Part shown: piece after piece, positions 2,648-43,808 of the stretch
Layout: each line of letters begins with the position of its first letter
How positions within the stretch are numbered: the first letter of the stretch is position 1
Origin: a virus
Virus genome (UHGV): UHGV-0175781
Length of the DNA stretch: 44,119 nt
Strand: one strand, 5' to 3'
Translations under genes and position numbers: made by a program
Notes under the pieces: generated by a model
What the model saw: only the letters and a program-made list of their open reading frames with translations
Told to the model about the DNA's origin: nothing
Databases searched by the model: none

Positions 2648-4068
2648 TTGCGCGCCTTTTTAGCTTTCATGTATTCCATCAAGTCGTCCTGAATATCTCG
2701 CTTACTGTCGCGACGCTCGGCGACCAGTTCGTCCAGTGTCCCGCGCGCCTGGATAATATAGACGAATACTGGACGGGGGTGTCCGGCTTGCATCTGGCGA
2801 ACCGGCCCTATACGCTCCACGATCTGCGAAAAGTGCTCAAAGTTCCAGGTATCGGAGAAGATAGCAAGGTGGTGCCCGCCATCCTGCAGGTTGAGGCCGT
2901 GACCCGCCGAGGCAGGGTGCGCAAACATGATGGGGATCTCGCCCCTATTCCACGCTTCCATATCCTTATTGCCCTGCTTGCCCTTGCCCAACGCAACGCC
3001 GTGCGGGAATTTCTTCTTGAGACGCGCCAGATCATGCTTGTATTGGTACGCGACGAGCAACGGTGCGCCGTTCAACTCCTCCGCGATACTTTCCAGCGCG
3101 TCCAGTTTAGCGTCGTGAATTTTCACCCATTCGTCGGTCCGTTCGCCGTCTTCGTCGACCTTATACACGGCCCCGGAAGCAAGCTGAAGGCACTTAATGG
3201 TCTTCGAAGCAGCGTTCGCCGCCTCCACCGTTCCGCTTTCCAGTTCGGCAAATAGCTCGCTTTCAAACTGGTCGTAGATCTTGCGGGCTTTCTTCGGCAG
3301 GTCCACAACAACCGGCGTATAGATTGGCTTGTCACATCCGAAGTATTCAGCCGCATCAACGGTGAGCGATACGTCAGACAGGCGTTGTTGTATTTCTTTC
3401 TCGGAGTTCTTAAGCGGGGCGTGCTGCATAGTAAAGCTGCCAGGCTTAACAGGCTTGCTAATAAACCAGCGATCAGTGAATGCCTTATAACTACTGCCGA
3501 GGCGTTCGCCGCCGTCGACAAACCACGTCTGACCCCACAGGTCTTTCAGTCCGTTTGGTGCGGGTGTGCCGGTCAGGTTAATCCAGCGCTTGACGTGCTT
3601 ATGTGCGATCGCTGCCAGCGCACGGGCACGCTTACTTCCCTGCTTGCTTCGATAACCTTTCAGCTTAGTGGATTCATCGGCAACAACGACCGTAAAGGGC
3701 CACGCATCGCCGTAATAGTCAACCAGCCACTCAACTACATCATAGTTAACACAAACTACGTTAGCGCCGCTCTCAAGCGCGGCTATACGGTCTTTTTCAG
3801 ACCCGGTGCCGTCTACTACCAGCAAGGCGGGGAATCGCCATTTTTCCTGTTCCGGGGGCCATGTGCCAGATGCAACGCGCAGCGGGGCCAGCACCAGTAC
3901 GCGGTCCTCCTGGTTGGACAGGATACCGGTCTGGAACATTTTATTCAGCGCCCACATGGTCGCGCCGGTTTTACCCGACCCCATTGTCGCCCATATATTG
4001 CATCGCTTATGCTTGAGGATGAACGCGGTTATCAACTTCTGATATTCGCGACGTCGGAAACGTGCCAT
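2644..4068 (-). CDS. SNF2/DEAD-like superfamily 2 ATP-dependent helicase (ORF extends to GTG at 4158; ATG at 4068 preferred)
   Basis: Walker A GSGKTGAT, DExx box VVADESTKLK, C-terminal SNF2-like helicase region (PASAGHGLNLQDGG...); start at 4068 avoids overlap with the well-supported gene 4073..4297. Confidence 0.8.
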   Translation of the reverse strand: MARFRRREYQKLITAFILKHKRCNIWATMGSGKTGATMWALNKMFQTGILSNQEDRVLVLAPLRVASGTWPPEQEKWRFPALLVVDGTGSEKDRIAALESGANVVCVNYDVVEWLVDYYGDAWPFTVVVADESTKLKGYRSKQGSKRARALAAIAHKHVKRWINLTGTPAPNGLKDLWGQTWFVDGGERLGSSYKAFTDRWFISKPVKPGSFTMQHAPLKNSEKEIQQRLSDVSLTVDAAEYFGCDKPIYTPVVVDLPKKARKIYDQFESELFAELESGTVEAANAASKTIKCLQLASGAVYKVDEDGERTDEWVKIHDAKLDALESIAEELNGAPLLVAYQYKHDLARLKKKFPHGVALGKGKQGNKDMEAWNRGEIPIMFAHPASAGHGLNLQDGGHHLAIFSDTWNFEHFSQIVERIGPVRQMQAGHPRPVFVYIIQARGTLDELVAERRDSKRDIQDDLMEYMKAKKARK

Positions 4069-4548: not shown

Positions 4549-4827
4549 CTACGCGACCAACTCAGCAACCAATAAATCACAGTCTGCTATGTTGTCGATA
4601 ACGCGAACGTCCGCACCGCGGCGGGCCATTCGCTCATGTTCTCGTATCTGGTGCGGCTTCGGTTTTCCTCCGGGGCGCTTCACTTCGACGAACACTATTT
4701 TGCCGTTGATGATGATAATCAGATCGGGCGCACCCGCGCGCCCCTCCCATGCCACTTTACGGCAGAATCCGCCTACGGCTTTAACCAACTTCATAAGGTG
4801 ACTTTGGATCTTGCCTTCTGGTGTCAT
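4549..4827 (-). CDS. VRR-NUC domain nuclease (PD-(D/E)xK fold)
   Basis: 92 aa; GAPDLIII...GKIVFVEVKRPGG matches the VRR-NUC D...E.K core. Confidence 0.7.
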   Translation of the reverse strand: MTPEGKIQSHLMKLVKAVGGFCRKVAWEGRAGAPDLIIIINGKIVFVEVKRPGGKPKPHQIREHERMARRGADVRVIDNIADCDLLVAELVA

Positions 4828-5015
4828 TTGGTTTGCAATTCCACGTTACGCAGGCGGAGGTCTACCGACACATCAGATCGACCGGTCAGCGCCAGCGCCA
4901 GGTTTTCAGGAGTAACAAGTGCCGTAATGGTCTTGCCACGTTCCAGTCTAATGACGATTCGAATCTCGTCATTGTCCGTCGCGCCCGCGCGCATTATGCT
5001 CATTTCTGCTTTCAT
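4824..5015 (-). CDS. hypothetical protein (start at internal ATG; ORF extends to 5060 but would overlap polymerase stop)
   Basis: ORF track; internal Met 16 placed just downstream of the polymerase stop at 5020. Confidence 0.45.
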   Translation of the reverse strand: MKAEMSIMRAGATDNDEIRIVIRLERGKTITALVTPENLALALTGRSDVSVDLRLRNVELQTK

Positions 5016-5019
5016 AATA

Positions 5020-7311
5020 TTATTTCCTGTACCTGTACATAATGTCGCCTTCGGCGGCAAGTGGGAAGCCTTTCGCCCAAATAGGCAGGTCGCACATCAG
5101 CGCGCATAGCTCCTCGGTCGTGTAGTCGTCAGTATCCGGAACTTCGGTGATCAATTCATCGTGCACTGACAGGACGATCTCGTATCCCGCGGATTCAACG
5201 CCAGGCATGGACCATGCGAGGATATCGCGACACAGCGCCTGCACGATGTTTTCCGTCAGTTTGCCGCCGTAGGTATACTGGAAGCCCCACTGGCGCGTCG
5301 TCTGATTCTCGCCCTGGTATTTAATGCGGGTGCTGGTGCGTTTCTTGCCAGTATCTTCGTCGATCTCGGTAGTGACAGACAGCGCGATGCCCGGATAACT
5401 CATGATGCGCCCTGACGGCAACTCAATTTTAAGCCACCACCCCGCCGCGTTCGGGTCGTCGCGCTCCTCGTCGAAGGTTGGGTCATGCTTCGCCTTCGTG
5501 CGAACAATCTTAAGCGCTTTCCTGCCATCCGGGCGAACGTTCGCGCCAGCCCAGTACGCTTTGCCTGGATTGCGGATTGCACACAACACCGCGTCTTCCA
5601 GTTCGGCCCAAAAGGCTACCGTCTTCGGGTGGGCCTCACGCCACATACGTTTGATCGCGTCACACGTCAACCACACGTTTTTCGGCAGTATATAAGTTGG
5701 GCGCTCGTCCTTCTTGCCAGGCTTCGGCGGGCGCTTCGCTTCGTTGATTCGGGCGTACTCATAACCACGTTTCGCCGCCGCCCATATGTGGTCTGGGAAT
5801 GTGCCCTTCATCACGTCAGCCATCGCGTAAAGGTCGAGGCCCAGGTTTTTAGCGAACTGCAAGAACGCCGCAACGCCGCCGCCATAGCCTAGTCCCAATT
5901 CGCACGCCTTACCGATCTGGCGTAAGTCTTTGCGGTTGGCTTTAATGTATTCCGGGTCGAGGCCAAACATCTTACCGGCAGTTTCACAATAAATATCGCG
6001 ACCCGCCCTAAACACCATTAGCGCGGTTTTCTCGCCAGCGATCCAGGCGAGGCCACGCCCTTCCACGTTAGAATAGTCCGCTACGACAAACTTCTTTCCC
6101 TTAGCCGGAATAATGCACCCGCGAACGGTCGAGGCTGTTAACTTCGATATGTCATACGCCCAGTGTGCGGTCCCGCGTAACAGGGAGTTGATGCCGTTGG
6201 TAAGCATGTGCGACCGCACCCAAAACGCGACGTCGCTCTCGCCTTCACGGCGCTTAATCTTCCCTTCGTGGTCGTCGCTATACTCGCCGCGTGCCAGGTT
6301 TTGCGGCTGGAAGCCCTTACCGGCCCAGCGTAGCGTGCGCTTTGCCCCACCATACTGAAGACAACCACGGCGGCGACCATCGGCAGACAGCCCATTTACG
6401 AGCGGATTGTACTTAGTCGACGCCGTTGATGATGCCCCGAGGCGCATCTCGATAAGCACTTTGCCCTCGTCAGGGAAGTCTGGATCTTCAAGCAGGTCGT
6501 TAAGCGTGGATTTCTGCGCGTTGTGGATCGTGAACGCAGGCGCGAGGTCGCGCAGCGCGGGCAAGAAGTCATTGCCGGTCAGCTTACCGCCGAAGCGCTC
6601 CCAGGCTTCTTCCTTCAATTCTTCCTTATGCGCCTGCACCGCTTTGATCGCGGCGTTCGCCAGGTCAACGTCCACATAGAAGCCGCGGTCATTGATCAAC
6701 TGGTCAATAAGCAGGATTTCGTCTTCCTTCGGCGTGTTGCCCCAGTCCGGTATGCGCCAATAGACTTCCCTCATAGCGATGATATCCAACGCGGCATAGC
6801 GCAGGAATTTAGCCCACTCCTCGGGGTGCGTCTCGCGCGTGTAGCGGCGGATTTTGTAGGTCTTAGGGGTTGGCTTACAGAATCGTTTGATCAGCGCCTT
6901 GCCCGCCTTATCCTTCGCGTGCTCTGCGTCAACGCCCAACACCTGGCACTGCATATCGAGGCCACCCGGCAGCGCGTGTCGAAAGGCCATAATCATGGTG
7001 TCTTCGATCTGGCACACTGGCAGGTCAATGCCCCACTTCTCGCGAATGACCAGGCGGTCAAACAGGAGGCCGTTAGCCATCACTATTTTTGCTTTCTTGC
7101 GGGATACCCTGCGGAGCGCCTTGCGCAGTTCACGCGGCATTGTTGGGGACTCTGTGCAATCCCATGTCTGCACGCGGCCCTCGTCGATGGCGTAGGTGCA
7201 AATCATAATCTCGGTTGTTGGGTGCTCTGCGTAGGCGTATGCGCCCACTTTCTTCAGGTCCACCCCGCTAAATGTCTCGGTATCGAGAAAAAGGCGTTCG
7301 AAGTCTTTCAT
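5020..7311 (-). CDS. family A DNA polymerase (Pol I-like) with N-terminal 3'-5' exonuclease domain
   Basis: 763 aa; Exo I motif LFLDTETF; motif B K....GLGYGGG; motif C VLSVHDELITEV. Confidence 0.9.
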   Translation of the reverse strand: MKDFERLFLDTETFSGVDLKKVGAYAYAEHPTTEIMICTYAIDEGRVQTWDCTESPTMPRELRKALRRVSRKKAKIVMANGLLFDRLVIREKWGIDLPVCQIEDTMIMAFRHALPGGLDMQCQVLGVDAEHAKDKAGKALIKRFCKPTPKTYKIRRYTRETHPEEWAKFLRYAALDIIAMREVYWRIPDWGNTPKEDEILLIDQLINDRGFYVDVDLANAAIKAVQAHKEELKEEAWERFGGKLTGNDFLPALRDLAPAFTIHNAQKSTLNDLLEDPDFPDEGKVLIEMRLGASSTASTKYNPLVNGLSADGRRRGCLQYGGAKRTLRWAGKGFQPQNLARGEYSDDHEGKIKRREGESDVAFWVRSHMLTNGINSLLRGTAHWAYDISKLTASTVRGCIIPAKGKKFVVADYSNVEGRGLAWIAGEKTALMVFRAGRDIYCETAGKMFGLDPEYIKANRKDLRQIGKACELGLGYGGGVAAFLQFAKNLGLDLYAMADVMKGTFPDHIWAAAKRGYEYARINEAKRPPKPGKKDERPTYILPKNVWLTCDAIKRMWREAHPKTVAFWAELEDAVLCAIRNPGKAYWAGANVRPDGRKALKIVRTKAKHDPTFDEERDDPNAAGWWLKIELPSGRIMSYPGIALSVTTEIDEDTGKKRTSTRIKYQGENQTTRQWGFQYTYGGKLTENIVQALCRDILAWSMPGVESAGYEIVLSVHDELITEVPDTDDYTTEELCALMCDLPIWAKGFPLAAEGDIMYRYRK

Positions 7312-11248: not shown

Positions 11249-11277
11249 TTGACACCTTGCGGTTTTAGGTGTAGTTT
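11249..11277 (+). promoter_or_regulatory. putative rightward promoter (-35 TTGACA, 17-bp spacer, weak -10 TAGTTT)
   Basis: seen in sequence upstream of gene 11309..11638. Confidence 0.3.
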
Positions 11278-11308
11278 CGTTGGTCATCAACCAACCGGAG
11301 ACAGAATA

Positions 11309-11638
11309 ATGAATATCAACGACGCAATCGAAATGTTAACGAAGACTGTTTGCAGTGAGACAAGCCGGTCATGGGCGTATACCGATGCCGTGGGTGCGGT
11401 GCTATTTGAAATCGAACGTCTGCGACTTACCGAAAAAGAATTGCGCGCCAGGCTGGAATTGCTCAACGGTACGGCGGCGAGCAAGCTGCAGAAGCACAAT
11501 GAAGAAATGGAAGAATACAAAAAACAGGTTATCCGTTTGCGCGCCGAGGGCAAATCTTGGGCGATGATTGCCGAGTTGACCGGAATTAATCAGAGCACAG
11601 TGCGCTCCTGGGTACGCAATAATAAAACTTCCAAATAA
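11309..11638 (+). CDS. HTH DNA-binding protein (candidate regulator or replication helper; ORF extends to 11249)
   Basis: C-terminal helix-turn-helix GKSWAMIAELTGINQSTVRSWV; GGAGA SD before ATG 11309. Confidence 0.6.
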   Translation: MNINDAIEMLTKTVCSETSRSWAYTDAVGAVLFEIERLRLTEKELRARLELLNGTAASKLQKHNEEMEEYKKQVIRLRAEGKSWAMIAELTGINQSTVRSWVRNNKTSK

Positions 11639-13913: not shown

Positions 13914-13988
13914 TTTTTGCGCGCATTGGTTGCCGGTATGGGAATTCCCATATCGCTAAGAGATTAATTTTTGCGCGCATTGGTTGCC
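13907..13988. repeat. two 28-bp direct repeats (AGATTAATTTTTGCGCGCATTGGTTGCC) flanking a 14-bp perfect palindrome ATGGGAATTCCCAT
   Basis: seen in sequence; first repeat overlaps the primase/helicase stop codon; a third partial copy (CGCATTGGTTGCC) at about 14011. Confidence 0.7.
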
Positions 13989-14071
13989 ATTTTGAGTGTT
14001 TTTAGCTGGTCGCATTGGTTGCCGTGTGATGTAAATATAATGCATAGTTATGCAATAAAACTGCATAAACC

Positions 14072-14231
14072 AAACGGGACAAAAAGCGGGACAAACAGGA
14101 GGCGGGACAAAGCGGGACAGCACCCCTGTCCCGCCAGTGCTGCCGCGGCTTCCAGAGGAGCGGGACAGCGGGACAGCACCCCAGTCTTTCAGACTAGACG
14201 GGGGGTCTGGCACCCCCCTCGTCTGAGACTG
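14072..14231. repeat. iteron array copy 1: at least 7 GCGGGACA(R) units (one inverted pair) followed by a ~50-bp bulged hairpin
   Basis: seen in sequence; about 85% identical to 30330..30491; flanked by CTGCATAAA boxes and an AT-rich tract. Confidence 0.8.
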
Positions 14232-14390
14232 CATAAAATCCAGGATTGCAAAATACACGGCAGCATGTTGTGGATTGCGGTCGTCACTGAACTAGGCAAC
14301 CAATACGAGTTGCAGAATGGTGGGTGAGAAATGCCGTTTGCAGTCACAACTGATAGCGATCAACTTTTTCATGCGCGTGATTAATATTGG

Positions 14391-14419
14391 TTGCATTCGC
14401 GCCAGCACCCTGCTAGATT
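14391..14419 (+). promoter_or_regulatory. putative promoter (-35 TTGCAT within ATTGGTTGCAT, 17-bp spacer, -10 TAGATT)
   Basis: seen in sequence about 30 bp upstream of gene 14448. Confidence 0.4.
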
Positions 14420-14447
14420 GGTTGCACACCAACAAGAGGACTGAACA

Positions 14448-14714
14448 ATGGCACACAAAGACCTGGTAGACGAATTGATTGAACTGCTCGAGGCTGAGGA
14501 CAATGAGGACCTTCAAGAGAGCGCGGAACACGAAGACCTGGCAGACGTATTGCTTGAACTGATCGAGGCTGAGAAAAATGCGGACCTTAAAGCGCGTGCG
14601 GCGCACATACTCGGCAACTTCAAGAAAGAGCACCGTTACGAAGCTATGCGCGTCTCGGCGCAAGAAGCGCTGATTAATTTCCTGAATAGCGTAACCATCA
14701 CGAAGAAGGACTGA
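14448..14714 (+). CDS. small acidic protein with internal tandem duplication
   Basis: 88 aa; strong SD AAGAGGA; two ~23-aa repeat units (DLVDELIELLEAEDNEDL / DLADVLLELIEAEKNADL). Confidence 0.6.
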   Translation: MAHKDLVDELIELLEAEDNEDLQESAEHEDLADVLLELIEAEKNADLKARAAHILGNFKKEHRYEAMRVSAQEALINFLNSVTITKKD

Positions 14715-21623: not shown

Positions 21624-22710
21624 TCAATATATGGCGGATCGAATGATCCGCCGACACATCTTCACCCAGCGCCTGAGCAATGACCAGGCGCGAAGGGTGC
21701 TGGCTATGTGGGAGAAGTTCCGGCCTACGTTACTGGGAAAGCTGACTGAGTTGCTTGATGGCAAATCGTCAATGAACAACAAGGCACTTTCAACCCTGCT
21801 AACGCAAATCGACAAGACCGTAAAAACGGAACTGCGCGCCGAGTTTAAGGCGTTGGCTGAAAGCCTTCAGGAGTTTGCCGACACGGAGGCTGATTATCTC
21901 GCCGACACATTAACGGCAGCGATCCAGCCGGTGGTCGCCGTACCTGCAGTCGAGGTGGTTGGCGTAGTGACCGGTGCGCAGATCGCAGCGACTGCAATTA
22001 AAAACCCGTTCCAGGGTAATACGATGATGCAATGGCCTGACTCACTTTCTGAGTGGACCAGGACGCAGATCGGCAATCAGGTGCGCGCCGGATTCATCCA
22101 GGGCAAGCCGACTATGGAAATTATTGCGGACGTGAGGCGCGCGCTCGGCGGTCGTAGTGCGCAAGCTATCTCAAGCGTTGTTAAGTCCGCAGTCAACCAC
22201 TATGCGGCGACAGCCCGCGAACTAATGGTAAAAGCAAATGACGATATTCTCGAAGGTCGCCAATGGTTATCTACATTGGACACGCATACTTCTCCCATGT
22301 GCCAGCTACGCGATCGCCTGTTTTATCCGGTTGATGTTACTCCCGACACCAAAGGAAAGCGCGGCGGGAAAGTGGTGGCTGGATCACAATATGGCGCTGG
22401 TCCAGGCAAGCTACATTATTGCTGCCGTTCGACGGAGACGTGGAAAGTCAAAGGTATGGAAGATTGGCCCAGTGGTAAGCGTCCGGCGCTGAAGGCTGAC
22501 GCTGGCAGATTGCTGAGTGAGCAGGTCGACGCGCAGACTGATTTCTTCTCATGGGTGCAGCGCCAGCCGCGCCATATCCTGGAGGAATTATACGGGGTGC
22601 AACGCGCCGACCAGATTATGCGCGGCGTGAAAGTCCCGAAGATGTTCACCGATTCCGGCGAACTAATGACTATCGCACAGCTTAAAAACCGGGGGTTATG
22701 GCGTGATTAA
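21598..22710 (+). CDS. head morphogenesis protein (Mu F / SPP1 gp7-like minor head protein)
   Basis: 370 aa directly downstream of portal; call mainly by position. Confidence 0.55.
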   Translation: MRTMAKTINQYMADRMIRRHIFTQRLSNDQARRVLAMWEKFRPTLLGKLTELLDGKSSMNNKALSTLLTQIDKTVKTELRAEFKALAESLQEFADTEADYLADTLTAAIQPVVAVPAVEVVGVVTGAQIAATAIKNPFQGNTMMQWPDSLSEWTRTQIGNQVRAGFIQGKPTMEIIADVRRALGGRSAQAISSVVKSAVNHYAATARELMVKANDDILEGRQWLSTLDTHTSPMCQLRDRLFYPVDVTPDTKGKRGGKVVAGSQYGAGPGKLHYCCRSTETWKVKGMEDWPSGKRPALKADAGRLLSEQVDAQTDFFSWVQRQPRHILEELYGVQRADQIMRGVKVPKMFTDSGELMTIAQLKNRGLWRD

Positions 22711-23032
22711 ATATGCGGCTATTGGACTGGTTATGGGTCTGGCGGTAGGATTCTGGCTAGGTGACTCCTACCGCGCTGGCGTAGTGGCGAAGGCGGCGCA
22801 AGAAGCGCAATCCCAAGCCCAACGGCAGCAAACTAAAGTAATTGAGCGCTCCGTGCAGGCAGAACAAGCCCGCGACGTGGAATACCGGACTATCACAAAA
22901 GAGGTTGTTAAATATGTTACGCGCCCTAACCGCCCTGATTGTAGTTTTGACGCTGAGCGCGTGCGGATCAAGCAGCGTGCCGTTGATGCCGCTAACGGAA
23001 TCGGCACTGCGACCGCCGTGCAAGTTCGATAA
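22703..23032 (+). CDS. i-spanin (Rz-like)
   Basis: 109 aa; N-terminal transmembrane helix then charged periplasmic region rich in A/Q/E/R. Confidence 0.6.
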   Translation: MIKYAAIGLVMGLAVGFWLGDSYRAGVVAKAAQEAQSQAQRQQTKVIERSVQAEQARDVEYRTITKEVVKYVTRPNRPDCSFDAERVRIKQRAVDAANGIGTATAVQVR

Positions 23033-23144
23033 CCCGTCTGCGGACCCCGACGAAGATTTGATGATTGACGTGAAAAATATGGAATGCGGGGCGAAGCTAA
23101 GGGCGCAGGTGCTGGAGTTGCAGCAAATAATTAAGGGGCCATAA
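22914..23144 (+). CDS. o-spanin (Rz1-like outer-membrane lipoprotein), overlapping the i-spanin in another frame (ORF extends to 22842)
   Basis: MLRALTALIVVLTLSAC lipoprotein signal with lipobox LSAC; AAAGAGG SD; proline-rich mature part. Confidence 0.6.
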   Translation: MLRALTALIVVLTLSACGSSSVPLMPLTESALRPPCKFDNPSADPDEDLMIDVKNMECGAKLRAQVLELQQIIKGP

Positions 23145-23157
23145 TGGCCCCTTTTTC
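23134..23157 (+). terminator. rho-independent terminator (AGGGGCC-ATAAT-GGCCCCT plus T5)
   Basis: seen in sequence; o-spanin stop codon lies in the loop. Confidence 0.6.
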
Positions 23158-23158
23158 G

Positions 23159-23923
23159 TTAGCGAGGAATGCCGCAAATCTCGTTGAGTGTTTTCACATC
23201 CAGCGCCACCGCCGTGGATTTTGGCTTGTCCGGGTATGGGATGAATTGCTCAACTTCAGGCCATGCTTTAATCAGCTTCTTGTCAGTATTGTGCAGGTCC
23301 AGTACACCGGTAACGGTGAGTTTGAACGCGTCATACTTCGCACGCAACTCGCGACGTGCCTTGTCGTTGCGGTCCAGGCGCTTACAGAAGTCATGGTCCG
23401 CCGGGTAGTCTGCGCGACCGCGTGGGAGATATATCGGCAGCGCTTTCCCTTCCTCGTCCACTTCGCACACTGACGCGAGCATAACTGTCTCGAACCCCGG
23501 AACGATATCGCCGAGATCAGGCGAGAGCTTATTCATATATTTCTCTTCCCAGTATCCGCGATGTACGCGGTATTGGCGACCGTCACCGCTCAAGGACAAG
23601 GTGCGAACATTTCCGCCTGCGTTGATTTCAAAGGTGGCGTCGTAAACGCTGCCGATACCCTTCGGGCGGTCGGTGTTATAACTATACGTCGCCTTGTTGG
23701 CGTATACGCTGACGCCGTACATCTGCGACTGGTCATCGCGGATTGCCTTGATATGCTCGCGTAGCGCGGCGAATGTGCGAATGCCGTCCGGCATACAGTC
23801 CAGCGTGATTGCGTACGCCAGGTCGCGAGAGTCCATCATGATTGTTTTGGCTTCGGTAGCGATTTCGTGGTCGCGCAGGATGTTAGCTAGGATCTGATTT
23901 TTAATGTCTTTCGTCAGTCTCAT
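23159..23923 (-). CDS. hypothetical protein, opposite-strand insertion in the morphogenesis block (ORF extends to 23968)
   Basis: about 254 aa; GAGGA SD before internal ATG; own predicted promoter and flanking terminators; no recognisable motif. Confidence 0.6.
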   Translation of the reverse strand: MRLTKDIKNQILANILRDHEIATEAKTIMMDSRDLAYAITLDCMPDGIRTFAALREHIKAIRDDQSQMYGVSVYANKATYSYNTDRPKGIGSVYDATFEINAGGNVRTLSLSGDGRQYRVHRGYWEEKYMNKLSPDLGDIVPGFETVMLASVCEVDEEGKALPIYLPRGRADYPADHDFCKRLDRNDKARRELRAKYDAFKLTVTGVLDLHNTDKKLIKAWPEVEQFIPYPDKPKSTAVALDVKTLNEICGIPR

Positions 23924-23989
23924 TTTTATGTCCTCATTGTTGGTGTGCAACCAATATAGCGCAACCAATTCCCGCAGTGCAAGCGAATT

Positions 23990-24017
23990 TTGCGATTATT
24001 TTTATCGCTGATAATAT
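23990..24017 (+). promoter_or_regulatory. putative promoter for scaffold/capsid genes (-35 TTGCGA, 16-bp spacer, -10 TAATAT)
   Basis: seen in sequence upstream of 24072. Confidence 0.4.
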
Positions 24018-24071
24018 TAAGGCGTGAAGTCAAGCGGGTGGCCCGCTTTGCCACAATCCCAGGGGGATAGC

Positions 24072-24773
24072 ATGAAACTTACTAAAGCAGGATATGACGC
24101 GTTGCCAGAAGGCATGAAGGCGTTATTTGTTGCCGATGGCGATGGGTATAAATCCACGTTCATGACCGCCGAAGAAGTACAGGCGGAGATCAAGGGTCTG
24201 AAAGACAACAACGCGAAGCTGGTTAGCGAGAAGAAAGCAGAAGCCGAACGCCGCGCCGAAGCCGAGCGCCTTGCGAAAGAGAAAGAGGAAGCCGCCGCGC
24301 GCAAAAATGGCGACCTCGAAGCGATCGATAAGTCCTGGAAAGATAAGTTCGCAAAACATGAAGCAGACACAGCGGGAAAAATCGAAGCCTACCGCAAGCA
24401 GATCCACGATCTAACCATCGGCAGCGCTGCCAAAGATTTGGCCTCGAAGCTGTTCGGTAAGAATGCTGGAATCATGCAACGCCACGTAATGGACCGCCTG
24501 ACGCTGGAAGACGGCGAAGACGGCAGCTTGAAGGTGCGTGTCTTGCAGGATGGTAAACCGTCCGCGCTGACTATGGAAGAGCTTGAAAAAGAGTTCCGTA
24601 ATAACGCCGATTTTGCATCCGTCCTGGCTGGCACGCCAGCCGGTGGTGCGCCGAGCAAACCGACGCATGTTGTCGAAGATGTGAAGTCGAAAATCTCTAT
24701 GGGCCACAGCTTCGGCATCACCGATCTGACGAAACAGGCTGGTGAAATCATCGCTAAAATGGGCGACGAGTAA
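24072..24773 (+). CDS. putative head scaffolding protein (ORF extends to 24024)
   Basis: charged, Ala/Glu/Lys-rich sequence suggesting coiled coil; immediately upstream of major capsid gene; GGGGGA SD. Confidence 0.5.
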   Translation: MKLTKAGYDALPEGMKALFVADGDGYKSTFMTAEEVQAEIKGLKDNNAKLVSEKKAEAERRAEAERLAKEKEEAAARKNGDLEAIDKSWKDKFAKHEADTAGKIEAYRKQIHDLTIGSAAKDLASKLFGKNAGIMQRHVMDRLTLEDGEDGSLKVRVLQDGKPSALTMEELEKEFRNNADFASVLAGTPAGGAPSKPTHVVEDVKSKISMGHSFGITDLTKQAGEIIAKMGDE

Positions 24774-26643: not shown

Positions 26644-26982
26644 TACGCGGGGTTAAAGCGGAAAGTCAATCCGCTGATTAAAAAGTTCGGCATGACGGCT
26701 ACGGTGACGCGTCCAGGCACCGTAGACCGCGTAGACGGCGACGAAGTGGTCATCCCTGCGACCTCGTTTGACGTCATCGGTCTTCGCGAGGAGTACAAGC
26801 CTAGCGAGATCGACGGAACGCGTATCGTTGCCGGTGATGTGAAGTTTTTGTGCCAGGCCGTCAAGCCGGTGAAGGTAGGGGATTTGGTTAGCCTGAACAA
26901 TACAGACTACAGGGTCATCAATCCAAACCCCCTGCAACCGGCAGGCACAACCATGCTGTTTCAACTACAGCTAAGGGGCTAA
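26629..26982 (+). CDS. head-tail joining protein
   Basis: about 117 aa; call by position. Confidence 0.45.
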   Translation: MAGFNYAGLKRKVNPLIKKFGMTATVTRPGTVDRVDGDEVVIPATSFDVIGLREEYKPSEIDGTRIVAGDVKFLCQAVKPVKVGDLVSLNNTDYRVINPNPLQPAGTTMLFQLQLRG

Positions 26983-26983
26983 C

Positions 26984-27577
26984 GTGGCTGAAGTCTACTC
27001 GTTCGCCGCCACGATTGCTACGTGGGTAGATAAGACGAAGGAGAACAACGACAAGGCTGTGCGGGCGTATGGGATGCAAATACTCGGACGCCTTATTGAG
27101 ATCTCCCCGGTGGGCGACCCTCGCCGGTGGAAGATTAACAAGGCTTATGCAATGGCCCGCCAGCACGCGAACAAGGTGAACGCCGCACAACGTCGCAAGA
27201 ATGGTGGCAAACTGAAGCGCGGTCAGAAGAAGCACGCCAGTGTGCTCGTTTCATTCAAGACTAAAAACGGCAATGTAACATTCCGGCAGCGTGGCTGGGC
27301 CGCGAAGAATTACACCGGCGGGCGCTTCCGTGGTAACTGGCAGGTGACGTTTGATCGCCCGGCTGTCGGCGCTATTGATCGCGTTGACAAGGCCGGAACG
27401 GCAACATTAGCCGCGGGGCGTGAAGTGCTGGCGCATTACGATTCGAGTGAATACGGGTCGATCTGGTTTACTAACAATGTGCCATACGCGCAGCGACTTG
27501 AGTATGGCTGGAGTAAACAAGCGCCCGCGGGGATTGTTCGCGTCGTAGCGGCAGAAATTAATTCGAAGGTGAAATAA
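26984..27577 (+). CDS. HK97 gp10-family tail component
   Basis: 197 aa; C-terminal NNVPYAQRLEYGW matches the conserved end of the HK97 gp10 family. Confidence 0.55.
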   Translation: MAEVYSFAATIATWVDKTKENNDKAVRAYGMQILGRLIEISPVGDPRRWKINKAYAMARQHANKVNAAQRRKNGGKLKRGQKKHASVLVSFKTKNGNVTFRQRGWAAKNYTGGRFRGNWQVTFDRPAVGAIDRVDKAGTATLAAGREVLAHYDSSEYGSIWFTNNVPYAQRLEYGWSKQAPAGIVRVVAAEINSKVK

Positions 27578-30559: not shown

Positions 30560-33202
30560 ATGGCAGATCAGGCAGCGGGCATCACGCTCAAGGCGGACGT
30601 CGCGCAAATTAAAACGGCGAATACTGTGCTGGACACATTTGCGCAGAAATCCGAGAACACAGAACAGAAAGTCAAAAAATTAAACGACACCCTCGGTAAG
30701 TCGAAAAAGGTTACTGGCGACGCCGCGGGCGGAATGGAAAAGTTAGCGACTGAATCGCAGCGCGCCGCCGACGGCATGACGAAACAGGAGCGACTAGCCA
30801 GCCGATTAGGCATGTCGACCAAAAACCTGGGATTCGCATCGCGGAATGCCGCATTCCAGTTACAGGATATCGCGGTTACGCTTGAGATGGGTATGCCGGT
30901 GCACCGCGTTATGCTTCAGCAGCTACCGCAGCTTACTGGGGCGTTTGGCGGACTGGGAAACACGCTGCGTTATGTCGTCGGCACACTCGGCCCGTTAGGG
31001 ATCGGCATCGCTGCATTAACGGCGACGTTAGGCGTGGGCGTGGCAATCGCGTCACGGGCAGAGAACCAGGTCGCCGCGCTTAATAAGACGCTGGCGCTGT
31101 CCGGTAATATTTCAGGCCTCACCGCTAACCAGATCCTGGTGCTGTCCGAGAACGCCGAGCGCATGGGCGGGTCATTTCGCAAGACGCGTGACACAATCCA
31201 GGCGCTGGCGGCGGCGGGTGTGAAAGCGGGCGGTGACTTCGGCGCATTGGCTAAGGTAGTTAATGACTTTGCGAAGGTGTCCAGCCAGCCGATCGAGGAT
31301 GTGGTAGCGGCTGTGGCGAAGCTGTCAACCGACCCCGTTGGTGGACTGCGTGCGCTGGCGGATAAGTATCACGTCGTAAACGAAGCGCAGATCCAGCAGG
31401 TACAGTCGCTCGTTGATGCGGGTCGTGAGACAGACGCAGTTGCGTTGGCTAACAAAACAGCCGCTGCGTCGTTCACCAGCATGACCAATGAAATCAAGTC
31501 CAACATGGGTACGCTTGAGCGGTCGATGAACGTCGTCACATCGGCAGCTAAATCTATGTGGGATGCAATCCTGGATGTGGGCCGCGCGCAGTCCTCGAAT
31601 GAGTCCGAGATGAAAGCGCGTGAGTCCTTGCAGCGCATGACCACGGCTTATTATGCCGAGATGAAAGCGGTAAACGCTGCCGGTGGGGTAATGACTGAAG
31701 CGCAGAAAGCACGTATTAACATGCTTTACAGCGAACTGGTAGCCCAGGAAAAAGTGGTGGCGTCGCTCACCCTGCGTAACCGTGCGGAGCGAGACAACGC
31801 CCGCGCCGCAGACGAATCCGCAAAGGCGAACGAGGAGGCCAACCGCACTGCCCGTGACCGCGCCGCGTTCGAGAAGGAATACGCCACCAACGCTAAGAAG
31901 CGCGCCGACGAGATCGCCCGCCTCAATTTGCTGAATAAGCGCGGCGTTATCGACGAGAAAGAGCTTGCTGAGGCGGTGAAGCAGGTAAACGAGCGTTACA
32001 AAGACCCCGCCCCGAAGAAGGCCGCGGCTGTTCGCGTGGATGCCGGTATGAAAATGCTGGAAGTTGCACGGAGCGAACTGGTCCAGCTTCGAGAATCCGG
32101 CAAGCAGATCGAAGCCAACGCATCGACGCAGACCCGCACGCAACGCGCTCAAGCGGCCTTAAACAAGCTGATCGCGGATAATGAGCAGTTAATTGCCGCA
32201 AGCAAAGAAAGGGCGCTAACGGCAGCGGAAAAGCAGCAAATGGCAGAATTCGGACGCGTGAAGGAAGTGCGCGAGCAGATCGTCGAAGAAGCCAAATTGC
32301 TGGACGCGAAAGAGAAGCAGGTCAAGGCGCACGCGCAGATCGATGCCTTCGTTAAGAACCAGAACGCCGAACTAAAAGCCACCGCGGCGGGCTATGCGCT
32401 TTCCACTCGCGAAGCGGCAAACCTGCGTGAAGAATTGCAGCTAATTGACCGCCTGAAGCGGGTTGGCGCTAACGATACCGATATTGACAAGGCGGTGTCT
32501 AAGCTGCGCGAAGTGCAGGAAGCACAGACCGGCGCTAACGCCTCGCTATGGGATGGCTTCAGCCGCGGGCTTAAGGATAGCGTGGATGATATGGGTAACG
32601 GATATACGCAGATGGCGTCACTCACAAAATTCACGTTCGGCGCTATGCAAGACACGATGAACGAGTTTTTCGAGACTGGCAAGCTGAACGCAAAGGATAT
32701 GGTTAAGTCCATCCTGAGCGAATTAATCAAGCTGGCTACATCGCAGGCATTCAAGTCCATTGTTAGCGCTTTCGGTGGCGATGGCGGCAAAAACGGATTG
32801 TTCGGCGCTATCTTCTCTGGCCTAACTAAGAATGCGGACGGAGGAGCGTACGCAGGAGGCAATCTCGCGGCCTATTCGGGGAAAGTGGTAAGCCAGCCTA
32901 CCTTTTTCAGTTATGGCGTTCAGGCGTTCGCTAAGGGCGCGGGATTGATGGGTGAGGCTGGGCCAGAGGCCATCATGCCACTGAAGCGCGGGCCGGACGG
33001 TAAACTTGGCGTTGCCGCGTCGGGAGCAGGCGGTGGTATGGTCGTGACGACCAACGTTTACACGGGGACTGGTAAAACGGATACCAGTGTCAGCGGGCCG
33101 GACCCCCGTACCGCGCAGGCGTTCGGCAAGCAAATCACCGAGGCGGTGAAGGCCGAGATCGTGAAGGCGACGAAACCGGGTGGTGTACTTTATAAACGAT
33201 GA
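30560..33202 (+). CDS. tail tape measure protein
   Basis: 880 aa, long Ala/Glu/Lys-rich helical sequence, glycine-rich C-terminus; SD AAAGGGGGA. Confidence 0.85.
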   Translation: MADQAAGITLKADVAQIKTANTVLDTFAQKSENTEQKVKKLNDTLGKSKKVTGDAAGGMEKLATESQRAADGMTKQERLASRLGMSTKNLGFASRNAAFQLQDIAVTLEMGMPVHRVMLQQLPQLTGAFGGLGNTLRYVVGTLGPLGIGIAALTATLGVGVAIASRAENQVAALNKTLALSGNISGLTANQILVLSENAERMGGSFRKTRDTIQALAAAGVKAGGDFGALAKVVNDFAKVSSQPIEDVVAAVAKLSTDPVGGLRALADKYHVVNEAQIQQVQSLVDAGRETDAVALANKTAAASFTSMTNEIKSNMGTLERSMNVVTSAAKSMWDAILDVGRAQSSNESEMKARESLQRMTTAYYAEMKAVNAAGGVMTEAQKARINMLYSELVAQEKVVASLTLRNRAERDNARAADESAKANEEANRTARDRAAFEKEYATNAKKRADEIARLNLLNKRGVIDEKELAEAVKQVNERYKDPAPKKAAAVRVDAGMKMLEVARSELVQLRESGKQIEANASTQTRTQRAQAALNKLIADNEQLIAASKERALTAAEKQQMAEFGRVKEVREQIVEEAKLLDAKEKQVKAHAQIDAFVKNQNAELKATAAGYALSTREAANLREELQLIDRLKRVGANDTDIDKAVSKLREVQEAQTGANASLWDGFSRGLKDSVDDMGNGYTQMASLTKFTFGAMQDTMNEFFETGKLNAKDMVKSILSELIKLATSQAFKSIVSAFGGDGGKNGLFGAIFSGLTKNADGGAYAGGNLAAYSGKVVSQPTFFSYGVQAFAKGAGLMGEAGPEAIMPLKRGPDGKLGVAASGAGGGMVVTTNVYTGTGKTDTSVSGPDPRTAQAFGKQITEAVKAEIVKATKPGGVLYKR

Positions 33203-40403: not shown

Positions 40404-40425
40404 AAGCCCCGGAAGGGGCTTATTT
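40404..40425. terminator. bidirectional hairpin terminator (AAGCCCC-GGAA-GGGGCTT) between convergent genes
   Basis: seen in sequence; T-rich on both sides. Confidence 0.45.
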
Positions 40426-40638
40426 GCAAGTGGTGCTTTTGAAGTGGTCTACAGAAACATACTGGAAGTTGAAAGGGTAGCCCGCCCGCAACATTTTATG
40501 CCCGCTAAAGTCGGCAACCCCAAACACCGGGACCGAGTATTCCATGCCGCTATTAACATATGTCGCGTCGCAGACTTTAGTCGGCATGTTGGCACAACCC
40601 GACAGAAGAACCGCACAAATCATAATTAAAGTTTTCAT
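40420..40638 (-). CDS. small outer-membrane lipoprotein, candidate superinfection-exclusion protein (Cor/Llp-like)
   Basis: 72 aa; signal peptide MKTLIMICAVLLSGC with lipobox LSGC; opposite strand next to receptor-binding genes; AGGGGGA SD. Confidence 0.55.
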   Translation of the reverse strand: MKTLIMICAVLLSGCANMPTKVCDATYVNSGMEYSVPVFGVADFSGHKMLRAGYPFNFQYVSVDHFKSTTCK

Positions 40639-43745: not shown

Positions 43746-43808
43746 AGTATTACCCTTTTTAGCGAGGGGCGATATTGCCCCCGACGTGATTAAGATACTG
43801 CAACCAAC

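Follow-up and report, generated by a model that had tools for sequence, protein, structure and literature searches.

Introduction

Proteins of the Pfam family PF18757 (InterPro IPR040835) carry the name "Nucleotide modification associated domain 5" (Nmad5). The family owes this name to the operon neighbourhood in phages of the M6 type: in M6, SN1 and CN2 (Rabinowitzvirinae) nmad5 is part of a thymidine-hypermodification operon, where it lies between the genes for aGPT-Pplase1 and a deoxyuridine (dU) hydroxymethylase. Here we describe a member of this family in the viral genome UHGV-0175781, a stretch of 44,119 nucleotides (nt) that was analyzed as a whole and is referred to below as the window. 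The gene occupies positions 23159-23923 on the minus strand and encodes 254 amino acids (aa). This gene, the nmad5 of the Dhillonvirus coliphages, has been catalogued before and in part studied. Its context, the lack of an enzyme-like fold or a clear catalytic signature, and the location of a published escape residue in a family-wide motif make a testable case for a protein that works by binding at the phage-host interface.

The studied orthologue comes from the work of Yamashita et al. (2025, Commun Biol; PMC11846954), who found that a single substitution in nmad5 lets Dhillonviruses escape from the membrane NTPase Tmn. The substitution is K216E in phage SM_A8, where nmad5 is coding sequence (CDS) 7, and K296E in the longer annotation of the gene in SMS22, where it is CDS6. 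Reverting the escape substitution brings back the sensitivity to Tmn. Phages from which nmad5 has been deleted are viable and still sensitive to Tmn. Cloning of the gene failed, apparently owing to toxicity. The authors read Nmad5 as a DNA or nucleotide modification protein (PMC11846954). In the literature that we searched we found no biochemical characterisation of any Nmad5 member and no mention of PF18757 or IPR040835.

Identity of the gene

The window is a rotated genome of a Dhillonvirus, a genus of Escherichia and Shigella phages (SSL-2009a, EP23, HK578-like). The 3-kb stretch around the gene matched 159 phage records at 80-99% nucleotide identity, nearly all of them Dhillonvirus. The genes are arranged in the order terminase, portal, head morphogenesis, Rz/Rz1 spanins, nmad5, scaffold and major capsid. 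A preliminary description, made from the letters of the DNA, had proposed a 254-aa gene with a good Shine-Dalgarno sequence as the only sizeable minus-strand gene between the spanins and the scaffold gene. All of this was borne out. The open reading frame (ORF) runs from an ATG (23923-23921) to a TAA stop, is preceded by GAGGA at 23935-23931 (minus strand, 7 nt 5' of the ATG, as read from the sequence), and is the sole sizeable one on its strand in this interval.

The translated product matches PF18757 over the full length of the profile (E=1.1e-60, 205.7 bits with a gathering cut-off of 27; residues 1-253 on profile positions 1-206 of 206) and PHROG 1965, a family of unknown function (E=1e-62). 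All family-wide positions of PF18757 are present in the protein; these are the N-terminal R-L-T, G104, T213, L217, W221-P222-E223, P229, L246-N247, G251 and P253. Because of the Pfam match and a ratio of nonsynonymous to synonymous substitutions (dN/dS) of 0.10-0.26 in pairwise comparisons with six relatives, which indicates purifying selection, the ORF is a real gene. The preliminary description had recognised no motifs and considered that the product could be novel; this view has to be given up, as the protein is a full-length member of a catalogued family with a studied orthologue.

The annotations of SSL-2009a (gp07), EP23 (p07), Kenya-K19, WFI and SM_A8 all show this 765-nt gene at the corresponding position. 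In SM_A8 and SMS22, too, it is flanked by Rz1 and scaffold and runs opposite to them. The window protein (254 aa) is 87% identical to Nmad5 of SM_A8, from which it differs in the central region (~45-135), and both contain the segment NTDKKLIKAWPE with K216. This lysine is that of the wild-type, Tmn-sensitive allele; the window and SM_A8 have it, as does every one of the 38 natural alleles that were compared. Relative to PF18757 and PHROG 1965, the Dhillonvirus proteins have a central insertion of ~40 residues (~113-160). The gene itself adds nothing new: close orthologues exist in ~150 sequenced phages, and one of them has been studied genetically.

Three other assignments were considered and rejected. 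A longer version of nmad5 from a TTG start (to 23968, 269 aa) would enter the promoter, and no relative is annotated in this way. The gene is not Ksap1, the trigger of KpAvs2 in a Dhillonvirus; Ksap1 has 74 aa and lies between methyltransferase and phosphatase genes. Finally, anti-Tmn (ORF35 of SMS22) is probably not the variable neighbour of nmad5, as judged by its ORF number, which puts it elsewhere in the genome.

Sequence evolution and predicted structure

The dN/dS of nmad5 is to be compared with 0.01-0.11 in structural genes, and its dN exceeds the values for the portal, head-morphogenesis, scaffold and capsid genes by a factor of 3-6. In the comparison with SM_A8, for example, dN is 0.068 for nmad5 and 0.006-0.012 for the flanking structural genes. 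The dS values depart from those of the flanks both downward and upward: dS is 0.10 in nmad5 and 0.19-0.26 in the flanks when SSL-2009a is the partner, whereas against SM_A8 it is 0.52 in nmad5 and 0.24-0.34 in the flanks. This disagreement indicates a recombinational mosaicism in which nmad5 alleles have probably been exchanged among Dhillonviruses independently of the head genes. Among the 38 alleles, the variation within the genus falls mostly in residues 21-30 and 41-135; residues 1-20, 181-230 and 241-254 are almost invariant.

An exhaustive profile search returned 516 Nmad5 clusters (50% identity) at E <= 0.001. The best 150 of these 516 clusters are all <=253 aa long, and most of the full-length ones among them have ~170-250 aa. 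In a set of 48 diverse members full invariance is limited to G104, W221 and N247; T/S213, L217, P222, P229, L246 and G251 come close to it. Conservation of polar or charged positions in this set is restricted to R2, T/S213, K/R216 (75%), E/D223 (94%) and N247; a Cys near the C-terminus is replaced by Ile in lambdoid members. The C-terminal motif T213-x-x-K216-L217-x-x-x-W221-P222-E223 ... L246-N247 ... G251-x-P253 is nearly invariant, and the published escape residue K216 is located in the middle of it.

Computed from its sequence, the window protein has 29 kDa and an isoelectric point (pI) of 7.0; it is soluble, near-neutral and without a hydrophobic segment. The structure prediction and fold search that the preliminary description had suggested as a check were run. 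AlphaFold2 gave a mean predicted local distance difference test (pLDDT) score of 67 for the window protein and 74 for a compact 206-aa homologue; the input alignments were shallow, as a broad-profile search for homologues yielded few extra sequences. In both models three long helices from the N-terminal part and one from the C-terminal part make up a bundle, and a short helical motif follows at the C-terminus. A Foldseek search of the BFVD viral models found only other uncharacterised Nmad5 proteins. Sequence searches of the PDB resulted in chance-level hits only, with lipoyl domains as the best hit for the single protein (E=0.02) and a best E of 1.2 for the profile of the 48 members. No enzyme fold was recognised in the fold and profile searches. 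The window protein had no match in NCBIfam and none in PADLOC, a library of defence models and not of anti-defence models. Homology to a structural or assembly protein, which the preliminary description had named as evidence against its view of the gene, was not found in Pfam, PHROG, PDB, fold or profile searches.

Distribution and insertion of nmad5

We compared the occurrence of nmad5 with that of its neighbours in the phage collection. The scaffold and the head-morphogenesis gene are each found in 157 records at >=80% coverage. A tblastn search detected nmad5 in full length in 147 records and at least in part in 150, which is ~92-94% of the ~157-159 Dhillonvirus records. The aa identity is 85-98% in ~146 phage records and 60-80% in four more, and in every record examined the gene lies between Rz1 and scaffold. 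Among the records inspected, its absence was seen only in two. The Sodalis phage SO-1 naturally lacks nmad5. Phage Teewinot has kept the promoter and a remnant of ~36 codons, codons ~37-248 having been removed by a deletion between two GAAATCTG repeats (Teewinot locus 2960-3101). The fraction of G and C (GC) is 0.53-0.565 across nmad5 and 0.52-0.57 in the flanks; it is 0.515 where the 400-nt counting frame enters the AT-richer control region.

The comparison with eiAU, from the sister genus Eiauvirus, gives a different view on the locus. The head, tail and replication modules of eiAU are homologous to those of Dhillonvirus, and in this phage gp44 (head morphogenesis) is followed 86 bp on by gp45 (scaffold). 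Because eiAU has no block between these two genes, the Rz/Rz1 pair and the minus-strand nmad5 unit of Dhillonvirus are, relative to the sister genus, an insertion into the head module. The spanin gene of eiAU resides within the lysis cassette (eiAU locus 30674-31159). In Dhillonvirus, where the holin and endolysin genes are a long way off, Rz/Rz1 belong to the head module. It seems that nmad5 and the spanins came to this site either together or one after the other.

The preliminary description had called the gene moron-like. In part this is correct: nmad5 is an accessory gene that is neither structural nor essential, it occupies a small variable slot among the head genes, and, judged from eiAU, it lies between genes that are adjacent in relatives, in an inserted block that includes Rz/Rz1 as well. 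The patchy presence and the deviant base composition of a moron are not seen. Since nmad5 occurs in ~92-94% of the Dhillonvirus records, has an ordinary GC content and evolves under purifying selection, it is not a recent moron. Its conservation at this position in all relatives, which had been named as a finding that would speak against the moron view, is nearly complete, with SO-1 and Teewinot as the exceptions among the records inspected.

Nmad5 in other phages

A detectable Nmad5 match is present in 339 phage records, ~62 of which come from the hypermodifying group (53 Pseudomonas and 9 Bordetella). The genomic contexts described in the following are hand-picked examples.

The M6-like proteins from Pseudomonas, Sphaerotilus and Bordetella phages (SN1_019, M6 ORF056) belong to the same Pfam family (E=3e-33 for SN1_019) and are ~38-41% identical to the window protein over the C-terminal 80 residues. 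Their genes are surrounded by those for aGPT-Pplase, a kinase, a radical-SAM enzyme, a pyridoxal phosphate (PLP) enzyme and the dU hydroxymethylase; the window has none of these. The early region of the window encodes Dam, DUF2800/PD-(D/E)XK, SSB, PolA, helicases, a helix-turn-helix (HTH) protein and a phosphoesterase. Neither in this region nor in the annotation of SSL-2009a did we find genes for a hydroxymethylase, a nucleotide kinase, an aGPT-Pplase, a radical-SAM or a PLP enzyme; only Dam-type methyltransferases are present. The neighbourhood of DNA-modification genes that gave PF18757 its name is therefore not present around the Dhillonvirus nmad5.

Other phages carry the gene in yet other places. 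In the temperate lambdoid phages HK542 (gp33, E=3e-72) and Kapi1 (Kapi1_018) the homologues are single-domain proteins of ~200-230 aa in an accessory position, encoded directly after N in the pL operon and ahead of cIII and the recombination genes. Many Shiga toxin (Stx) phages also hold an Nmad5 homologue, as judged by sequence match. Phage eiAU, which shares its head, replication and tail modules with Dhillonvirus, encodes Nmad5 as gp32 (E=2e-68); there the gene lies outside the head module, is forward-oriented, follows the primase-helicase gene and an iteron-rich region, and has its own promoter. In metagenomic relatives (23-28% identity) nmad5 is part of a replication operon with genes for a DUF2800 nuclease, an Enc34-type SSB, PolA and an AAA_25 primase-helicase. 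A replication module of DUF2800, Enc34-type SSB, PolA and primase-helicase is also encoded in the window. In C130_2 nmad5 lies just upstream of the lysis genes. The Vibrio myophage 1.094.O has a homologue in its tail module, annotated as "coil containing protein" (locus 4557-5276), between the genes for a large protein with transmembrane helices and for DNA circulation; this is a second case inside a structural block. The family name rests on the M6-like neighbourhood, which does not apply to the Dhillonviruses, the lambdoid and Stx phages and several other groups.

Possible function of Nmad5

We give about even odds to a mode of action in which Nmad5 binds at the phage-host interface and does not catalyse a reaction. 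The gene would be expressed early or in the middle of infection from its own promoter. The protein, built on a long helical bundle with a fast-evolving central region and a conserved C-terminal motif, would bind through this motif to a conserved host or replication-associated partner without modifying bases. The engagement with this partner would then set the response of defences such as Tmn. Binding is favored over catalysis because there are few invariant residues and few conserved polar positions across the 48 members. The raised dN and dN/dS, the mosaicism in dS and the confinement of the variation to residues 21-135 can be read as the signature of a host interface. The replication-operon neighbours and the post-N position in pL operons of other phages suggest a link to DNA metabolism and early genes. 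As the deletion of nmad5 gives no escape from Tmn, K216E in the conserved motif appears to be a gain-of-function or change-of-function substitution. Tmn has been reported to be triggered by RIIB of phage T2, an early protein linked to the membrane and the replisome (PMC13001434). Such a trigger would be in line with a surveillance by Tmn of early phage proteins that are associated with replication. Nmad5 alleles may in this way influence the host range on strains that carry Tmn.

Several points weigh against this proposal. The timing of expression, the binding partner and the activity of Nmad5 are what we infer from sequence and context, and a generic sigma-70 scan of 22600-24400 found no site at threshold. 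The structural models are only moderately confident, and the central beta region and the extreme C-terminus are poorly predicted. R2, T213, E223 and N247 could form an active site; such sparse residues of catalytic type are compatible with an enzyme. The tight embedding of nmad5 in the hypermodification operon of the M6-like phages fits a role in base modification. The link to Tmn, moreover, is a genetic one only, and the wild-type Nmad5 is not simply the trigger of Tmn, because its deletion gives no escape. The preliminary description had thought of a function in defence, anti-defence or exclusion; the published connection of an orthologue with Tmn escape lends substance to this guess.

A more far-reaching idea, to which we give tentative credence at most, is that Nmad5 is misnamed altogether. 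It would be a widespread, non-catalytic early protein that moves between genomic slots, namely replication operons, lambdoid pL operons, hypermodification cassettes and head or tail modules, and that docks with its C-terminal motif onto a conserved component of the host or the replisome. Membrane NTPase defences of the Tmn type would monitor this docking or be blinded by it. If this were true, Nmad5 would represent a new class of phage-host interface hub with at least 516 sequence clusters (50% identity).

Nmad5 could also be a dedicated counter-defence protein, that is an inhibitor or decoy against one or more host defence systems which travels as mobile cargo in any slot that a phage provides and which K216E would retarget or strengthen against Tmn. 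This explanation overlaps with binding at the phage-host interface, and as a separate account we regard it as rather unlikely. It agrees with the presence of Nmad5 in accessory hot spots (the post-N site of lambdoid pL operons, the variable locus of Dhillonvirus, the tail module of the Vibrio myophage), and with the observation that nmad5 evolves faster than its flanks in a localised variable region. That the gene is dispensable and apparently toxic in cloning, and that a point mutation and not a deletion escapes Tmn, is a gain-of-function pattern (PMC11846954). However, wild-type Nmad5 is not known to inhibit any defence system, and no defect of the phage without nmad5 has been reported. Furthermore, the C-terminal motif is conserved across phages of Escherichia, Pseudomonas, Vibrio and Bordetella, which points to a universal target and not to a fast-changing immune protein.

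It is unlikely, in our view, that Nmad5 is an enzyme or an obligatory subunit for the modification of DNA or nucleotides, which would produce, alone or with the phage methyltransferases, a low-abundance mark that is read by Tmn or by other systems. This is the interpretation of the Tmn study itself (PMC11846954), and the operon position between aGPT-Pplase1 and dU hydroxymethylase in M6, SN1 and CN2 as well as the few polar residues that are conserved family-wide speak for it. The window, however, offers none of the enzymes that accompany nmad5 in those phages, and no enzyme fold has been recognised. The hypermodifying group accounts for only ~62 of the 339 phage records with a match. The gene is also carried by temperate lambdoid and Stx phages, with no hypermodification cassette adjoining it in the two that were checked. 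Dhillonviruses are also reported to be sensitive to type I and type II restriction when compared with 7-deazaguanine phages. Because of this sensitivity and the lack of hypermodification genes in the window, a bulk base modification by Nmad5 is unlikely here, while a rare or site-specific modification is possible.

A helper of head assembly or another structural role, suggested by the position between the head-morphogenesis and scaffold genes, is very improbable: the gene has the opposite orientation and apparently its own signals, eiAU with its homologous head genes has no nmad5 at this position, SO-1 and Teewinot do without it, homologues occur in replication, pL, lysis-proximal and tail contexts, the engineered deletion is viable (PMC11846954) and, as weak evidence, no protein of ~254 aa is found among the 24 reported from the purified lysate of EE09 in the legible part of the published table.

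Control region, variable slot and related sites in the window

The nmad5 locus appears to be a short minus-strand transcription unit, which is composed of a control region, an optional variable gene, nmad5 and a bidirectional terminator. On one side it faces the spanin pair on the plus strand (22703-23144), in which Rz (22703-23032) contains the start of the embedded Rz1 (22914-23144). The hairpin at 23133-23153, terminator-like on both strands, is shared by Rz1 (+) and nmad5 (-). It has a stem of 9 bp, overlaps the stop codon of Rz1 and lies 6 nt past the stop of nmad5; the T-tracts on both strands are weak. In phage WFI a terminator is annotated at the equivalent place. The terminator that the preliminary description had placed at this end of the gene (23134-23157) corresponds to this hairpin.

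At the other end, a control region of 148 bp extends up to the start of the head scaffolding gene (24072-24773, plus strand), which diverges from it. This region contains two exact copies of GCAACCAAT (ATTGGTTGC) at 23947-23969, starting at 23947 and 23961 and hence 14 nt apart. On the strand of nmad5 it also contains a putative -35 hexamer TTGCAC (23977-23982) and, after a spacer of 18 nt, a putative -10 hexamer TATATT (23953-23958). The -10 hexamer and the proximal ATTGGTTGC copy share three bases, which end the former and begin the latter, so that one of the operator-like copies lies over the -10 and the other in the spacer. The arrangement TTGCAC-18 nt-TATATT is conserved in 7 of 8 relatives; the eighth, LM40P1, was not picked up by the anchor search. 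The -10 is conserved in the relatives checked and sub-threshold in the generic scan, and the -35 has the form TTGCAN or TTGCGC in relatives. In eiAU, nmad5 is preceded by a similar TTGCAC-17-TATAGT promoter. From the conservation of the hexamers and this similarity we infer a weak sigma-70-type promoter for nmad5 that is overlapped by the ATTGGTTGC repeats. The preliminary description had assumed a divergent, motif-rich promoter of its own for the gene; the motif copies are there, and the promoter itself is a prediction.

The control region is conserved among relatives whichever gene comes next. Between it and nmad5 is a slot that holds a 109-aa gene, a 170-aa clamp-like gene or nothing. SM_A8 and most relatives have such an extra small gene between promoter and nmad5, whereas the slot is empty in the window, in Kenya-K19 and in WFI. 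The 109-aa gene (of the type of SSL-2009a gp08; SSL-2009a locus 3463-3792) occurs in ~61 records and has no family match; distant copies are found in Pantoea phages and in two large (~155 kb) phages of Escherichia and Salmonella. The alternative gene of 170-172 aa (EP23 p08, locus 3505-4017) has a sub-threshold match to the central domain of the beta-clamp. It is present in ~16 Dhillonvirus records, and its type is widespread in siphophages of Salmonella and Klebsiella. The gp7 of SO-1 (SO-1 locus 5063-5581), which is of the same type, was called a "possible moron" by its authors. The insertion junction shows a TTGG microhomology, and a GGGGCTTTCGCCCC hairpin remains. The truly variable, moron-like element of the locus is this slot and not nmad5. 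Since it takes zero, one or alternative genes, the slot is a natural cargo site for phage engineering.

The GCAACCAAT 9-mer is not restricted to the nmad5 locus. It occurs 15 times in the window, where a random 9-mer would be expected ~0.34 times when both strands are counted (our own calculation). The sites are at 1606, 1623, 4565, 11111, 13925, 13979, 14014, 14296, 14386, 14417, 15209, 23947, 23961, 40695 and 43811. Almost all are intergenic or in 5' regions, and they lie upstream of nmad5, of cor, of an acidic 88-aa gene, of the HTH/primase operon and of two leftward early genes; cor, a lipoprotein gene (40420-40638), is on the opposite strand. At several sites the motif provides a TTGCAT -35 at 16-17 nt from a TAnAnT -10, at two sites it overlaps the -10, and at 43800/43811 it makes a palindrome. 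The nmad5 leader ATTGGTTGCACACCAACAAnGAGGAC recurs nearly exactly before the 88-aa gene at 14448-14714. In eiAU the equivalent non-coding region (eiAU locus 26900-27160) contains GCAACCAAC iterons. Taken together, GCAACCAAT/ATTGGTTGC looks like an operator or promoter element of a phage regulon, and nmad5 would belong to a phage-specific set of non-late genes with cor, the acidic 88-aa gene and the HTH/primase operon. Because the same repeats mark these other non-late genes, nmad5 is probably expressed with the early or middle set for DNA metabolism and not with the head genes.

Three features in the replication region of the window deserve mention. The gene at 11249-11638 (+), the first of the primase-helicase operon, encodes a basic protein of 129 aa (pI 9.1) with a C-terminal HTH (HTH_23 / Sigma70_r4_2), the counterpart of which is labeled "transposase" in SSL-2009a. 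A copy of ATTGGTTGC is present ~130 nt upstream of this gene, and the protein is a candidate for binding the motif. The 88-aa protein encoded at 14448-14714 (+), in the region downstream of the primase-helicase gene, has a pI of 4.6, 22 acidic residues and the internal repeat EDL.D.L.ELIEAE in two copies; the promoter and leader of its gene are nearly identical to those of nmad5. It had no significant family match, with HEAT_2 staying sub-threshold. As a speculation, it might be a DNA mimic or an anti-restriction protein. Between the primase-helicase gene and this 88-aa gene are ~530 bp of non-coding DNA (13914-14447) with three copies of a 33-nt repeat that ends in ATTGGTTGCC, at least six CGGGACA iterons (~14072-14176) and several inverted repeats, which make this stretch a candidate for a replication origin or a regulatory hub.

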